Positions 2,565-54,033 of a DNA stretch of 64,000 bases are shown piece after piece. The notes beneath the pieces were generated by a model. It saw only the letters and a list, made by a program, of their open reading frames with translations, had not been told where the DNA came from and made no database searches. The stretch's first letter is position 1. Every line of letters begins with the position of its first letter. The stretch lies in contig DATIKU010000030.1 in assembly GCA_035477215.1 (NCBI GenBank), positions 22,299-86,298 of the forward strand. Reading direction: 5' to 3'. This DNA is from Spirochaetota bacterium (GTDB taxonomy: Bacteria > Spirochaetota > UBA4802 > UBA5368). Position numbers and translations under genes: made by a program.

Positions 2565-2591
2565 TTAGCACTCTATGCGATTGAGTGCTAA
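2565..2591. promoter_or_regulatory. CIRCE operator (HrcA binding site): TTAGCACTC-N9-GAGTGCTAA. Extended arms gttattagcactc/gagtgctaataac span 2561-2595.
   Basis: Perfect 9-9-9 inverted repeat matching the CIRCE consensus, located ~10 nt upstream of the hrcA start on the minus strand. A TTGACT-N17-TTATGT-like promoter lies just upstream on the minus strand. Confidence 0.9.
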
Positions 2592-25628: not shown

Positions 25629-25726
25629 GCATTCTCACCCTTTCGTTTGGAATTACGAGGACGCCGACCGCACCGGCTCCGGGCGTGCCATCCCGGCAAC
25701 AGTATGGCGACGAAATTTCGTACTTG

Positions 25727-25753
25727 ACAGTGTACGATAATATCGTACACTGT
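25727..25753. promoter_or_regulatory. 27-bp perfect palindrome ACAGTGTACGATA-A-TATCGTACACTGT overlapping a TTGACA(25724-25729)-N16-TACACT sigma70-like promoter; candidate IclR operator
   Basis: Arms are exact reverse complements with a 1-nt spacer. Located in the divergent intergenic region between the dehydratase operon and the IclR gene. Confidence 0.6.
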
Positions 25754-25840
25754 TCTATTGTTTTCGCATCTCTGCTAATATGTCAATAAGATAAGCGCAT
25801 TAAAATAAAAATATTTCCTGCGGGCGGAGGAAGGGCGTCT

Positions 25841-26611
25841 ATGACGTTAAAGCAAAGAAGGCTCATTCAATCCATCAAGAGGGCCTCGGACATACTCGGC
25901 ATTTTTATCCAGGAGAAGCGTACAATGGGTATTACGGATTTCGCCCACCGCCTCGCGCTGCCTAAAACCACCATCTCGAGCATCGTCCGGACCCTGGAGG
26001 CGCTGAAGTTCCTTGAAAAGGACCACATCACCTCCAAATACCGCCTTGGCCCCGCGCTTTTCCAACTGGGGATGAAATACGCCACCAACATGGACCTGGT
26101 CATCATCGCGCGGGCTTGGATGGAACGGTTGTGCTTTCAGTTCATGGAGCCGGTGAACGTCGGCATGCTGGTCGGAGACAAGGTGATCGTGGTGCTCAGG
26201 GTCGAACCTGAAAACCGATTTATGGTCTTTCCGCAGGCCGGCTCGGTAATACCCGTCCATACCACCTGCATCGGGAAGCTTCTCCACGCCCATCTGTCTC
26301 CAGACGAGCGAGGCGCCCTCCTCAAGAATTACTCCTTCGAGAAGCTTACGGCGAATACAATCGATGATCGCGAGCGCTTTATTGCGGAGCTTGACCGGGT
26401 GAAACACGAAGGTGTCGCGTTCGACAACGAGGAGTCGATAGTGGGACTGGCGGGCATCGGCGGGCCGATTTTCAATTACACAGGACAGGCCGTGGCCGCT
26501 TTTGTCATCACCGGCAAAGCGGAAAATATCCGGAAAAATCGCGAAAAGATGATAACCGCCGTACGCTATACGACCGGCCAGGTTTCGGCACAGTTGGGAT
26601 ATTCGCCTTAA
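25841..26611 (+). CDS. IclR family transcriptional regulator
   Basis: N-terminal HTH (SIKRASDILGIF...ITDFAHRLALPKTTISSIVRTLEA) and C-terminal IclR effector-domain-like region. 256 aa. Confidence 0.8.
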   Translation: MTLKQRRLIQSIKRASDILGIFIQEKRTMGITDFAHRLALPKTTISSIVRTLEALKFLEKDHITSKYRLGPALFQLGMKYATNMDLVIIARAWMERLCFQFMEPVNVGMLVGDKVIVVLRVEPENRFMVFPQAGSVIPVHTTCIGKLLHAHLSPDERGALLKNYSFEKLTANTIDDRERFIAELDRVKHEGVAFDNEESIVGLAGIGGPIFNYTGQAVAAFVITGKAENIRKNREKMITAVRYTTGQVSAQLGYSP

Positions 26612-26722
26612 AACAGCAGAAAAACAGCTTTGCCTTAACTCAGAACAAGGGGCTGCACCCCCTTGTTCGGCCGATTGTTGCGCCTACGTACTAACCAGTC
26701 TGCGCATATCAATAAAAAATGC

Positions 26723-26751
26723 TTGCCGAATGTCCAGAAATTGGGTATAGT
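26723..26751 (+). promoter_or_regulatory. Sigma70-like promoter TTGCCG-N17-TATAGT directly abutting a CIRCE element
   Basis: Spacing and -10 are visible in the sequence. Its arrangement relative to CIRCE mirrors the hrcA promoter. Confidence 0.4.
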
Positions 26752-26754
26752 TTA

Positions 26755-26781
26755 TTAGCACTCAGCACCAGTGAGTGCTAA
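26755..26781. promoter_or_regulatory. Second, orphan CIRCE operator TTAGCACTC-agcaccagt-GAGTGCTAA
   Basis: Perfect 9-N9-9 match to CIRCE, with extended arms ttattagcactc/gagtgctaata shared with the hrcA copy. No chaperone gene lies downstream. Confidence 0.85.
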
Positions 26782-26820
26782 TATCAGGCGGGCTGATGCC
26801 GGCTGATATACTTCAAGCAC

Positions 26821-26848
26821 ATCCCCATGGCGACATGGGGATTTTTTT
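26821..26848 (+). terminator. Intrinsic terminator, plus-strand orientation
   Basis: 9-bp stem ATCCCCATG/CATGGGGAT with GCGA tetraloop followed by T6-7. It overlaps the stop of the convergent lipoprotein gene. Confidence 0.65.
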
Positions 26849-27389
26849 ACAGCCGCCATTGGTCGCGGAGGACCTCCATTTCAAGTTCGTAATAATACTC
26901 CGCTACGGCCTCTTCGATCGAGGCGTGTAATTTCGGCAGTCGCGGCTCTATCAAAGGGTTTTTCGCAAGCAGTTGCTTTCTGATATGGCCGGTAAAGGTA
27001 TCAAGAGGGGGGATCAGATAGTTTTTGACATAGGTATACTGCTTCCAGTCTCTTTCAATCTCGTATGCGGACATTCTGTGACGCATCATCGCCCCGAGGC
27101 GGTATAGCTTTTTATAGAACTCCAGGATATCGTCCGGACTAAAATCCTGGAGCGCCGCCGCCAGCGCCTTCTCCCTTGCCGGCATGTTCGTTTCGCTGAA
27201 CGAATGCGAGTGGATGTAATCGATCTCTATCTCATCATCGAAGCCGAATCCGTAATCGAGCGCCTCGCTGGTTTTCTCGAGCATCTTTTTTTGCGCCGGC
27301 GAAAAAATCGAGTCGTCGCGGACGGGCATTAACGCACACCCTCCCGCGAATATCAGCACCAACGGCAATAACACCCATTTCATGTTCAT
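26847..27389 (-). CDS. Hypothetical lipoprotein
   Basis: Signal peptide plus lipobox (LIFAGGC), 180 aa, no other motif. Confidence 0.5.
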   Translation of the reverse strand: MNMKWVLLPLVLIFAGGCALMPVRDDSIFSPAQKKMLEKTSEALDYGFGFDDEIEIDYIHSHSFSETNMPAREKALAAALQDFSPDDILEFYKKLYRLGAMMRHRMSAYEIERDWKQYTYVKNYLIPPLDTFTGHIRKQLLAKNPLIEPRLPKLHASIEEAVAEYYYELEMEVLRDQWRL

Positions 27390-27406: not shown

Positions 27407-28444
27407 TTATTCGAAATCTTCCAGACGCAATGGGAAGTCTTCCGGGATGTCACGCCGGCTCGTGCGGCCCAGCATTCGCCTCAGATCCGCGACCGGCATT
27501 CCCACGCCGGGTCGCTTGACCGCAACCGCGTCCCGGTCCAGCGCTTCGCCGGCGCGAAGGGGCCTTCTGCTAAAGAGGCTTCTGCGTGCCGAATTTGCAA
27601 CCTCTTTTTCAGAAAAGTCATAGTCGATGCGCCCATCGCCCATCATTTCCATCGCCGTCTCGACATCGCCCCTCATGCGGCGAAACTCCGCCGGGGAAAG
27701 CGACACGGCCGCATCCGGGCAGTCATACCCCTCTTCCGGCATGAAGTGCTTCTCGAAAACGCGCGCACCGAGCATCGCGGCGAGCGCGCAGCCCCTCCCG
27801 TCGGTTGAATGATCCGAAAATCCCACCGGAATGCCGAAGCGTTCGCGAAGCGACGATATCCGCGAAAGGTTGGCCTTGTCGCAAGGGAGCGGATATAGAG
27901 CGACGCAGTGAAGCAGGATGATGCCGCTCGTTCCGCCCCGCCGGAGTGTGTCGATGGCACGCCCGATCTCATCGCCGGTGGATATTCCGGTGGACATGAT
28001 GACGGGTTTGCCGGTGGCGGATACGCGCTCGAGGAGCGGAGTGTTCGTTACCTCCGAAGAGGCGAGCTTGTACAGGGGGATGCCGACCCGCTCGAGCATT
28101 TCGACAGATTGAATATCGAAGGCGGAGGAAAAAAAGACAAGGTTCGCCGCCTCCGCCGCTCTTTTAAGCTCATGATAGTCATCCTCTCCCAGAACGAAGC
28201 GTCGGAAAAAATCGATTTGCGCGGTATCCGCCACGAGGTTTTTTTCTCCCCGCAGCATCGAGTTCGTGTAACGTGAGTACATCTCCTCCGGAACAAAGGT
28301 CTGGAGTTTGACGGCGTCGGCCCCGGCCCCCGCGGCCGCTTCGATCATGGAGAGCGCTTCGTCGCGGTTTCCGTTGTGATTAATACCGATTTCCGCGATA
28401 AAAAACGTCGCGTCTCCTTTATGCACTTTCTCCATTCGGTTCAT
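27407..28444 (-). CDS. NeuB family sialic/nonulosonic acid synthase-like protein (N-acetylneuraminate / pseudaminic acid synthase family) with C-terminal SAF domain
   Basis: FIAEIGINHNGN hallmark. TIM-barrel NeuB core. 345 aa. Confidence 0.75.
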   Translation of the reverse strand: MNRMEKVHKGDATFFIAEIGINHNGNRDEALSMIEAAAGAGADAVKLQTFVPEEMYSRYTNSMLRGEKNLVADTAQIDFFRRFVLGEDDYHELKRAAEAANLVFFSSAFDIQSVEMLERVGIPLYKLASSEVTNTPLLERVSATGKPVIMSTGISTGDEIGRAIDTLRRGGTSGIILLHCVALYPLPCDKANLSRISSLRERFGIPVGFSDHSTDGRGCALAAMLGARVFEKHFMPEEGYDCPDAAVSLSPAEFRRMRGDVETAMEMMGDGRIDYDFSEKEVANSARRSLFSRRPLRAGEALDRDAVAVKRPGVGMPVADLRRMLGRTSRRDIPEDFPLRLEDFE

Positions 28445-28635
28445 CCCGCCTCCCCGCCTTTCCCCGGCAATGCCTTATCGTTCATGCGTGTACTGGACAG
28501 CCCCAGGTGATTCAAAGACCCTACTGTATTTTTCGGCATCGGGCCGGTATTTTTAATTGACACAGACCAAAAACAAGTTAATCTTCCATGGCGCTCTGGT
28601 CCAGTCGAAATATCATAAATTCTCGGGGTTTGCGC

Positions 28636-30120
28636 ATGGGTAAGAAGTTTATCATCGCTCTTGATTTGGGCACCACCGGAAACCGCGTATTCTGCTTCGA
28701 TGAGGCTGGCTATCCCCTTTCGAGCGCCTACCGCGAGTTCACCCAGTACTTTCCACGCCCCGGATGGGTCGAGCACGATCCCGAGGAAATCTGGTCATCC
28801 ATCGCGGGTCTGATCACCGAGGCCATCGCCGGGGGAAATCTCGACCCGGCCGACGCTCTGACCATCGGCATAACCAACCAGCGCGAGACCGCCGTCCTCT
28901 GGAACAAGGACACCGGAAAGCCCGTATACAACGCCATCGTATGGCAGTGCCGGAGGACGACCGAAATCTGCAACGATTTAAAGAGTGGGGGCCTCGAGGA
29001 AAGCTTCAAGAAAAAAACGGGCCTCTTGGTGGATGCCTATTTTTCCGGCACAAAGATAAAGTGGATGCTCGACAATGTCTCCGGCGTCAAAGAGCTCGCC
29101 AAATCGGGCAAACTCTTCTTCGGCACCATCGATACCTGGATCCTATGGAAACTCACCGGAGGAAAATCGCACAAGACCGATTATACCAACGCCTCCCGAA
29201 CGCTCGTCTTCAATATAGTCGACAAACGCTGGGACCGCGAGCTGCTCGAGATACTCGGCATCCCCGTGAACATCCTTCCCGAAGTGCGCGATTCGTCCTC
29301 GTTCTTCGGTGAAACGCTCGGCGCCCCCGGTATTCCCGACGGTGTCCCGATCGGCGGAATCGCCGGTGATCAGCAGGCAGCCATGGTGGGTCAAAACTGC
29401 GTTTTCGAGGGGACCATCAAGAACACCTACGGCACCGGTTGTTTTATGCTGCTGAACACGGGCGACTCCTTCATTCTTTCCGACAAGGGCCTCCTCACCA
29501 CGATCGCCTGCAACCCGCTCGGCAAGCCGGCTTATGCATTCGAGGGCTCCGTCTTCGTCGCCGGGGCCGTGGTGCAGTGGCTGCGCGATTACATGAAATT
29601 TTTCGAGCAAAGCCCGGATTCCGACAGGCTCGCCATGTCCTTCGAGAAGGACGACGAGGTGGTAATGATCCCGGCCTTCGTTGGGCTGGGAGCGCCGTAC
29701 TGGAAGATGGACGCGCGCGGTGCCATCTTCGGTCTCACCCGCGACACCACGCGCGAGCAGATCATACGCGCCGCCCTGCGGTCCATCGCGTTCCAGTCCA
29801 TGGACGTCATCGAGGTGATGCAGCAGGACTCGGGTAAGACCATTCACGAACTGCGCGCGGACGGCGGGGCGACGAGAGGGTCGTACCTGATGCAGTTTCA
29901 GGCCGACATACTGGGCATCCCGGTCCTTCTGCCGGAGGTGATCGAGTCGACCGCGCTCGGCGCGGCGTACCTCGCGGGGCTTTCGGCCCGACTGTATAAT
30001 TCGATCGACGAGGTCGCCAAGCAGAACCGGATCGTTACGCGATACATTCCTCAATATTCCGAAAAGGAACGATCAGCCCAGAGAAAGCTCTGGAAAGACG
30101 CCGTTAATCGATTATTGTAA
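28636..30120 (+). CDS. glpK: Glycerol kinase. ORF open from 28588; likely start MGKKFIIALDLGTTG.
   Basis: FIIALDLGTTGNRVF, WVEHDPEEIW, FGTIDTWILWKLTGG: classic GlpK motifs. Confidence 0.9.
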   Translation: MGKKFIIALDLGTTGNRVFCFDEAGYPLSSAYREFTQYFPRPGWVEHDPEEIWSSIAGLITEAIAGGNLDPADALTIGITNQRETAVLWNKDTGKPVYNAIVWQCRRTTEICNDLKSGGLEESFKKKTGLLVDAYFSGTKIKWMLDNVSGVKELAKSGKLFFGTIDTWILWKLTGGKSHKTDYTNASRTLVFNIVDKRWDRELLEILGIPVNILPEVRDSSSFFGETLGAPGIPDGVPIGGIAGDQQAAMVGQNCVFEGTIKNTYGTGCFMLLNTGDSFILSDKGLLTTIACNPLGKPAYAFEGSVFVAGAVVQWLRDYMKFFEQSPDSDRLAMSFEKDDEVVMIPAFVGLGAPYWKMDARGAIFGLTRDTTREQIIRAALRSIAFQSMDVIEVMQQDSGKTIHELRADGGATRGSYLMQFQADILGIPVLLPEVIESTALGAAYLAGLSARLYNSIDEVAKQNRIVTRYIPQYSEKERSAQRKLWKDAVNRLL

Positions 30121-53719: not shown

Positions 53720-53791
<72 letters not shown>

Positions 53792-53797
53792 GTTGTT

Positions 53798-53879
53798 TGC
53801 GAGCGAAGGGACTTGAACCCCCACACCTTACGGTACCAGATCCTAAGTCTGGCGCGTCTGCCAGTTCCGCCACGCTCGC
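53798..53879 (-). tRNA. tRNA-Leu (anticodon TAG), long variable arm
   Basis: Reverse complement GCGAGCGTGGCGGAACTGGCAGACGCGCCAGACTTAGGATCTGG... Acceptor GCGAGCG/CGCTCGC pairs perfectly; anticodon loop is CT-TAG-GA. Confidence 0.85.
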
Positions 53880-53960
53880 CCTCCAGTCAAATATCGGCGC
53901 AAGGGTGTTATTTTCAACAACTTTTCTCCGTGCGCCCGGCCTGCCCGGGGAGAGGCGGAT

Positions 53961-54033
53961 TGGGTTGCCCGAGAATCGAACTCGGAACCTACTGATTAAG
54001 AGTCAGGTGCTCTGCCAGTTGAGCTAGCAACCC
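53961..54033 (-). tRNA. tRNA-Lys (anticodon CTT)
   Basis: Reverse complement GGGTTGCTAGCTCAACTGGCAGAGCACCTGACTCTTAATCAGTAGGTTCCGAGTTCGATTCTCGGGCAACCCA. Anticodon loop is CT-CTT-AA. Confidence 0.85.

Follow-up and report, generated by a model that had tools for sequence, protein, structure and literature searches.

Why should a perfect heat-shock operator stand where no heat-shock gene follows it? HrcA and its operator, the controlling inverted repeat of chaperone expression (CIRCE), form one of the most widespread heat-shock switches in bacteria and are usually described for a handful of chaperone operons. In 64,000 nucleotides (nt) of DNA from a Spirochaetota bacterium (contig DATIKU010000030.1, positions 22,299 to 86,298; this whole stretch is the window, numbered here from its first letter), one CIRCE copy fronts the expected chaperone genes and a second, at 26755-26781 on the plus strand, lies between an IclR regulator gene and the convergent lipoprotein and NeuB genes. 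We propose that this second, orphan copy controls an independent gene for a non-coding RNA of about 90 nt, which would belong to the HrcA heat-shock regulon and act by base pairing; we put the probability of this whole reading at roughly 0.65. The narrower claim, that the unit produces a small plus-strand transcript gated by HrcA, is very probable.

The pattern search, which tolerated up to three mismatches, returned two CIRCE matches in the window against an expectation of 0.01, and both are perfect. The canonical copy (2565-2591, minus strand) sits 10 nt upstream of the start of hrcA (1496-2554; Pfam HrcA, E 4e-54), which is followed on the same strand by grpE (676-1464) and dnaK (from about 595). 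This hrcA-grpE-dnaK cluster with its own CIRCE means that the window holds a canonical HrcA system, with the repressor present. The orphan copy reads TTAGCACTC-N9-GAGTGCTAA, with AGCACCAGT as the nine-base loop, and shares with the canonical copy the extended arms ttattagcactc and gagtgctaata, a likeness that a first-pass annotation, made by a model from the letters of the window alone, had correctly picked out. The same annotation also held that both copies are equally spaced from their -10 boxes, and this failed: the promoter scan calls no minus-strand promoter before hrcA, and the -10 candidates found there by eye end 1 or 5 nt from the CIRCE, versus 3 nt at the orphan.

Within 26700-26860 the orphan operator is embedded in a compact series of signals. 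An A-tract resembling an UP element (AAAAAA, 26714-26719) lies directly 5' of the -35 hexamer, with TGC between them; the -35 hexamer TTGCCG (26723-26728, in the conserved context TGCTTGCCGA) is followed by a 17-nt spacer, the -10 hexamer TATAGT (26746-26751), a 3-nt gap (TTA) and CIRCE. About 40 nt beyond the end of CIRCE lies an intrinsic terminator, ATCCCCATG-GCGA-CATGGGGAT plus U7 (26821-26848), whose 9-base-pair stem spans 26821-26842 and is capped by a GNRA tetraloop, with the T-run reaching 26848; the scan calls it on the plus strand only. Apart from the A-tract and the 3-nt gap, these parts had been proposed in the first-pass annotation, and they are borne out in turn by pattern matching (the perfect CIRCE), by consensus scans (the TTGCCG-17-TATAGT promoter and the strong plus-strand terminator) and by open reading frames (ORFs) with family matches (the position between IclR and the convergent lipoprotein and NeuB genes). 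Its statement that no chaperone gene follows is equally correct, since the next plus-strand gene is the glycerol kinase gene glpK, about 1.7 kb away and past the two minus-strand genes for the lipoprotein and NeuB. There is no same-strand ORF right after the terminator, so the unit does not have the layout of a 5' leader or attenuator. It resembles known CIRCE operators in the inverted repeat itself, in its position after a -10 hexamer and in the presence of hrcA in the genome, and lacks the chaperone or protease operon.

Two other readings of the letters around the operator were rejected. A minus-strand promoter built on GTGCTTGAAG has no -10 box at 16-18 nt, and a sigma-32-like reading of CTTGAA and CCCCAT has the wrong order and spacing. 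The surroundings of CIRCE also show a loose mirror symmetry on a larger scale, with TGCTTGCCGAATGTC at 26720-26734 and GATATACTTCAAGCA at 26805-26819 being 73% complementary, and AAAAAAT (26714-26720) mirroring ATTTTTT (26841-26847); this may be chance or the trace of an ancestral two-way promoter.

The geometry of promoter and terminator predicts a small RNA (sRNA) of about 90-92 nt, from about 26757 to 26848. This is somewhat below the 95 nt or so that the first-pass annotation had given. We infer a start within the left CIRCE arm, at A26757 or G26758 (6-7 nt past the -10 hexamer), and an end in the U-run; such a start fits the mapped architecture of CIRCE promoters (PMC6212727; PMC2662882), in which the promoter is usually followed closely by CIRCE (PMC6212727). 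The operator would thus also form the 5' terminal stem-loop of the RNA. Passages quoted in PMC3207917 link a CIRCE at the RNA 5' end to RNA stability (Homuth 1999, Jäger 2004).

Folding of the 98-nt stretch gives three hairpins, with z = -6.4 relative to shuffled sequences (-5.6 to -6.4 for the three-hairpin fold of the predicted RNA). Behind the CIRCE hairpin stands a central hairpin (26781-26809) formed by AUAUCAG and CUGAUAU around an inner GGC/GCC stem, which holds a 10-nt tandem duplication, GCGGGCTGAT/GCCGGCTGAT (direct-repeat family D4). An 11-nt single-stranded linker, ACUUCAAGCAC (26810-26820), separates it from the terminator. The alignment of relatives marks CUGAUAUACUUCAAGCAC (26803-26820) as a conserved motif running from the hairpin into the linker; its part UUCAAGCAC (26812-26820) is both single-stranded and invariant in the close group, and the stretch, with CUGAUAUAYUUC, is the best candidate for a seed. 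No ORF in the unit is conserved across the close group and the outgroups. Rfam 15 has no family reaching its gathering threshold, either in the whole window or in a permissive scan of 26650-26900; the best match below threshold, NsiR1 (20 bits versus a gathering score of 39, E 0.07), covers the hairpin and terminator part only. With its own promoter and terminator, no conserved coding potential and conservation above the neutral level (0.93 versus 0.49, see below), the unit has the sequence attributes of an independently transcribed sRNA gene.

The unit recurs in relatives. Contig look-ups for eight clusters of lipoprotein homologues (63-100% identity) yielded 13 loci; those long enough share NeuB, lipoprotein, IclR and two 2-hydroxyacyl-CoA dehydratase genes, and CIRCE lies about 66 nt beyond the lipoprotein stop in every locus with enough DNA. 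Altogether 15 distinct sequence variants of a close group carry it, from metagenome-assembled genomes (MAGs) and metagenomes of uncultured Spirochaetota; the best protein matches of the window's lipoprotein and NeuB are likewise assigned to an uncultured Spirochaetota MAG. Loci L009, L010 and L050 have anaerobic digesters or biogas reactors as their source. A scan of a genome collection for CIRCE followed by TTCAAGCAC found it in six species-level MAGs of Spirochaetes/Leptospirales, and a metagenome scan that used the RNA body alone and did not require CIRCE recovered 8 true copies, all 8 with CIRCE, the same promoter and the same flanks. The other 18 matches of that scan are chance hits, mostly in what looks like coding DNA, and have neither CIRCE nor a promoter ahead of them; the scan returned no copy of the RNA body without CIRCE. 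Viral contigs gave one chance match, GC-rich, coding-like and lacking CIRCE. The clade of the unit would be uncultured Spirochaetota (Leptospirales-like MAGs).

In the genome-collection scan TTCAAGCAC also appeared near CIRCE in 42 loci of other phyla (Woeseiaceae, Chitinibacteraceae, Burkholderiales, Clostridia and others, in the range L015-L060 of our locus numbering), which were set aside, none of the 42 resembling the RNA body or the terminator. In the groups that were read through (Woeseiaceae with related gamma- and betaproteobacterial loci, and Clostridia), the motif comes from an ordinary CIRCE promoter that points the other way: it is the -35 region of that promoter, gtgcTTGAAa, in reverse complement. 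Proteobacterial CIRCE promoters among these loci are laid out as TTGAAA, 17 nt, TATTAT and then directly TAGCACTC.

The upstream neighbour of the unit is a co-directional IclR gene in most loci, a divergent DUF6290 gene in three (L005-L007) and a divergent PAS histidine-kinase gene in one (L092). Because orientation and structure are kept with all three of these neighbours, the element is its own transcription unit and no mere terminator or 3' untranslated region (UTR) belonging to the gene before it. Across loci, the convergent lipoprotein gene alone is a constant partner. In L005, L006 and L007 the gene for the 70-residue, antitoxin-like DUF6290 protein (L006 5131-5343, for example), together with about 600 nt of extra DNA, lies between IclR and the sRNA promoter, an insertion in one species that leaves the unit intact. 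No relative examined has a chaperone gene downstream of the unit; groES directly behind it, which the first-pass annotation had named as the sign of a displaced groESL promoter, never occurs there.

Conservation within the unit is selective. Mean pairwise identity, computed over seven close lineages, is 1.00 for both the -35 hexamer and the CIRCE arms, 0.93 for the 67-nt RNA body and 0.82 for the -10 hexamer, against 0.49 at the four-fold degenerate sites of NeuB and lipoprotein (0.74 for the whole coding sequence). The promoter spacer and the N9 loop of CIRCE stand at 0.54 each. In a sliding profile the RNA body, at 0.92-0.96, is the best-conserved stretch of a 1.6-kb region, and the intergenic DNA just upstream of the unit falls to 0.30-0.47. 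The alignment of the 15 close-group variants has the same pattern: AAAAA of the A-tract is invariant in 15/15 and the CIRCE arms in 14/15, TGCTTGCCGA, most of the RNA body and the terminator are likewise fixed, and the promoter spacer, the nine-base CIRCE loop and the DNA 5' of the A-tract are free to vary. Across these variants and the two outgroups described below, the -10 hexamer takes six forms (TATAGT, TATACT, TATAAT, TATTGT, TATTTT and TATATT) and is always TATnnT; its end stays 3 nt from CIRCE and the 17-nt distance to the -35 hexamer is kept. In the close group the terminator loop is always of the GNRA type (GCGA, GAGA, GCAA or GAAA). The variant with the altered arm is L005, where the left CIRCE arm at about 4635 reads ATCAGCACTC in place of ATTAGCACTC, a single T-to-C change; L006 and L007, whose lipoprotein is identical to that of L005 at the protein level, keep the consensus arm, and the change is either a polymorphism or an assembly error.

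By these figures the promoter spacer, the CIRCE loop, the upstream DNA and the synonymous sites of the neighbours are near saturation. Such a pattern is what one would expect if the promoter is active, the inverted repeat binds a protein and the RNA has a function, and it is unlike that of a decaying remnant.

Deeper lineages, reached through NeuB homologues at 57-62% identity, numbered four, and two of them (L089 and L092, with neighbouring proteins about 50% identical) are deep outgroups that carry the unit. Both have TTGCCG-17-TATATT and, after the 3-nt gap, CIRCE, which is perfect in L089 and carries one mismatch in L092; in both the body has diverged. The terminator of L089 is AAAUCCUCAUG-CGCG-CAUGGGGAUUU. 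That of L092 is AUCCCCAU-GGAA-AUGGGGAU-U8 and lies inside the last nine lipoprotein codons. Neither outgroup has the AAAAA of the A-tract, and both keep the terminator stem sequence. A covariance model built from the close group only finds both (45 bits, E 2e-9 for L089; 38 bits, E 2e-7 for L092). In all three types (window, L089 and L092) the fold runs from the CIRCE hairpin at the 5' end through a structured centre to the terminator; for the window and L089 this centre consists of one hairpin, with a single-stranded linker behind it. A 12-mer, CUGAUAUAUUUC, is identical in L092 and several close-group variants, with the rest of the body diverged; L089 carries CUGAAUUAUUC at the seed stretch. 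Together with the selective conservation, these two outgroups argue for the first-pass proposal that the orphan CIRCE is functional, as opposed to a chance match or remnant.

The control logic is well supported, by a perfect operator in the standard position, a repressor gene in the genome and selectively conserved arms. Transcription would start from the sigma-70-type promoter TTGCCG-17-TATAGT, with the perfect CIRCE 3 nt behind it. By analogy with CIRCE elsewhere, HrcA bound to the operator would cover the start and keep the gene off in unstressed cells. When HrcA becomes inactive, through heat or because unfolded proteins titrate GroEL, transcription would begin within the left CIRCE arm, and the palindrome would fold into a stem-loop of 7-8 base pairs flush with the RNA 5' end, probably stabilising the molecule. 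After it would come the central hairpin, the 11-nt single-stranded linker and the GNRA-looped intrinsic terminator. The most likely action of the sRNA would then be to pair, through CUGAUAUAYUUC(AAGCAC), with messenger RNAs elsewhere in the genome. For such base pairing in trans, taken by itself, we put the odds slightly below even. We advance still more tentatively a fuller picture, in which the unit is the first non-coding member of the HrcA regulon, an ancient, clade-wide sRNA whose palindrome serves both as operator and as protective 5' stem-loop and whose seed reprogrammes non-chaperone genes under proteotoxic stress.

Four sets of observations weigh against the proposal of an HrcA-controlled sRNA. 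The promoter matches the consensus at 9 of 12 positions and its -35 hexamer is weak. Covariation is lacking: in the consensus fold of 27 pairs there are 0 compensatory changes and 3 one-sided A-to-G changes giving G-U, so that the check for a conserved structure suggested in the first-pass annotation found the three-hairpin layout in L089 and L092 but no pairwise compensation. This absence is explained by a close group that is too similar and outgroup bodies that are too diverged to align; a possible double compensation in L089 rests on a hairpin read by eye that is not the minimum-free-energy one. The G-U changes, and the other close-group variation on unpaired bases and on the GNRA loop of the terminator, count on the other side, in favour of the RNA. 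Targets, third, did not emerge: neither a duplex scan of 50 crude gene starts nor a search for the seed complement gave a site above background in the 64-kb window, and lineage-by-lineage scans of glpK, neuB, the lipoprotein gene, iclR and the two HGD-D genes returned background only, no surprise for so small a share of the genome. A match at the glpK start codon was discarded as a target for want of co-variation in L009 or L089. Finally, the remaining deep lineages (L088 and L090/L091) keep the synteny and retain the lipoprotein but have no CIRCE at the equivalent position, and the unit is therefore dispensable in this sister lineage.

L090 keeps a recognisably related AAAAAGTGTTCGCCG...TATATA stretch, then a different inverted repeat and a different terminator. 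At the equivalent loci (L090 4167-4325, L091 1965-2123, L088 6592-6755) a C/G-rich 5' hairpin replaces CIRCE; its arms differ between ACACCC-N7-GGGTGT in L090/L091 and ACCCCG-N5-CGGGGT in L088, with the stem kept, and a UUGAA motif and a conserved terminator, GCCGCC..GGCGGC with a T-run, follow. The element may be a differently regulated version of the sRNA or just the IclR 3' UTR. A neighbour-joining tree of NeuB and lipoprotein makes L088/L090 the sister of the close group and leaves L089 and L092 outside; its deep branches are not robust because they all stand at about 50% identity. On that tree, parsimony would make the CIRCE unit ancestral and remodelled once.

The alternative that survives best, although unlikely, is a cis-acting one, in which the HrcA-gated promoter fires against the neuB-lipoprotein operon and alters its expression under stress, either through pairing of the short RNA or a read-through product with the 3' end of the lipoprotein messenger RNA or through collision of polymerases. 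The unit always adjoins and converges on the lipoprotein gene (26847-27389, minus strand; 180 residues with an FAGGC lipobox and no Pfam or NCBIfam match), beyond which lies the NeuB gene (27407-28444, minus strand), and it does so even where the other neighbour changes. The terminator U-run overlaps the lipoprotein stop codon by 2 nt in the window, the L092 terminator lies within the coding end, and the scan calls no minus-strand intrinsic terminator for the lipoprotein gene, whose messenger RNA probably enters the sRNA gene. Yet how far the unit reaches into the lipoprotein coding sequence varies: about 30 nt in L092 and 2 nt in the window, whereas some 75 nt separate the two in L089. The strong terminator also looks constitutive, with no conserved antiterminator found; the one candidate, GGGCUGAUG with CAUCCCC, pairs weakly and is disrupted by close-group substitutions at 26821. 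Such a switch also leaves the 93% conservation of the RNA body unexplained, and the lipoprotein gene persists in L088 and L090, where CIRCE does not.

An improbable alternative gives the locus a role in DNA only, either as a decoy or buffer for HrcA, or as a protein roadblock with several hairpins that stops the IclR and lipoprotein transcripts running towards each other, with an RNA devoid of function. In its favour are the perfectly conserved CIRCE arms and a position between converging genes, neither of which has a good terminator. A decoy, however, could do without a promoter, whose hexamers, spacing and 3-nt distance to CIRCE are nonetheless conserved, and it needs neither a conserved body of 67 nt nor a strand-specific U-run; the unit is also present where the upstream gene is divergent and there is nothing to terminate from that side.

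Two further explanations are very improbable. A groESL or dnaK promoter decaying after a rearrangement would account for the promoter-CIRCE geometry, which is that of chaperone operons, and for extended arms identical to those of the hrcA CIRCE, but it is contradicted by the data: no relative has a chaperone gene downstream, and purifying selection acts strongly on the unit, which has a conserved terminator of its own, against a background of saturated neutral sites. The other explanation is that HrcA controls a gene for a small protein. A reading frame opens in the window at ATG 26796 or GTG 26775, and the matching register of L089 holds a frame of 27 codons. The window frame, however, meets no stop ahead of the terminator and continues through it, a clear Shine-Dalgarno sequence is missing, L092 has no ATG and a stop after 5 codons, and 6 of the 7 close-group substitutions in the frame change the amino acid.

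Several features of the flanks deserve record beside the sRNA gene. The IclR gene (25841-26611, plus strand) lies upstream of the unit and co-directional with it. In the divergent promoter region between it and the 2-hydroxyacyl-CoA dehydratase genes, a perfect inverted repeat of 13 base pairs, GACAGTGTACGAT-AAT-ATCGTACACTGTT (25726-25754), coincides in part with promoter-like hexamers of either strand; it probably serves as the operator for IclR. About 30 nt past the IclR stop, a strong hairpin, GAACAAGGGGCTG/CACCCCCTTGTTC (26643-26668), has no T-run and has a similar counterpart in L001; it may end IclR transcription in a non-canonical way or belong to a repeat element. On the other side, the longest ORF of the glycerol kinase gene is 28588-30120; its homologues in L001, L006 and L009 begin with MGKKFI or MGNKFI, which corresponds to ATG 28636, and this start, with GGGG ahead of it, is likelier than 28588. 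A conserved 65-residue ORF with no family match lies, in all lineages, between a hybrid histidine-kinase gene and glpK (L001 986-1183) and has equivalents in L002, L005, L009, L089 and L092, the last with an aminotransferase gene in the kinase's place. Farther off, three tRNA genes form a cluster on the minus strand at 53720-54033.

If the proposed sRNA is real, the HrcA regulon gains a post-transcriptional output, through which the expression of other genes could be lowered or raised in cells whose protein folding is failing. Should it also reprogramme non-chaperone genes through its seed, a repressor-based heat-shock system would have a repressing arm like that of the enterobacterial sigma-E sRNAs. 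The unit would also offer a clean and testable case of one sequence with two uses, a protein operator at the DNA level and a structural part of the transcript. In practical terms, target prediction can start from a defined RNA candidate of 90 nt, a candidate seed and a set of MAGs. Besides the MAG of the window, these are GCA_018263175.1, GCA_964510075.1, GCA_041306645.1, GCA_004297825.1 and the ADurb.BinA120 MAG with contig MVZN01000001.1. Genome scans for CIRCE followed by a terminator could uncover hidden regulon members in other phyla. We found no HrcA- or CIRCE-controlled sRNA in the full-text literature, a search whose coverage excludes most subscription journals; an sRNA behind CIRCE would extend the classic regulon in a way apparently not previously described, as far as searched.

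The closest precedents are stress-regulon sRNAs of other bacteria. MicA, RybB and MicL of Escherichia coli depend on sigma-E. In Helicobacter pylori, Nrr1, Nrr2 and NikS are repressed by NikR, and the repressor operator of NikS overlaps the -10 box or the start site (PMC9696931). Like MicA, RybB, MicL and NikS, the unit described here would be a dedicated sRNA gene under a master stress regulator, with a promoter and an intrinsic terminator of its own; unlike them, its predicted regulator is HrcA and its operator would double as a structural element of the RNA. A different connection to the same circuit is known for the Mycobacterium tuberculosis sRNA F6, which is SigF-dependent and, according to the account of PMC8557902 quoted in PMC13435591, acts on hrcA and chaperonin expression. 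Both sRNAs would be tied to the HrcA, GroEL and GroES circuit, but F6 acts upstream of it, whereas the present sRNA is a proposed output of HrcA, and the two have no sequence relationship. The comparison returns finally to the chaperone operons themselves. The canonical groESL and hrcA-grpE-dnaK promoters have the same operator, placed directly after a sigma-70-type -10 hexamer and overlapping the start site, and chaperone messenger RNAs likewise carry CIRCE transcribed into their 5' ends; the predicted transcript of the orphan unit differs from them in holding no chaperone gene or ORF and in ending at its own terminator after about 90 nt.

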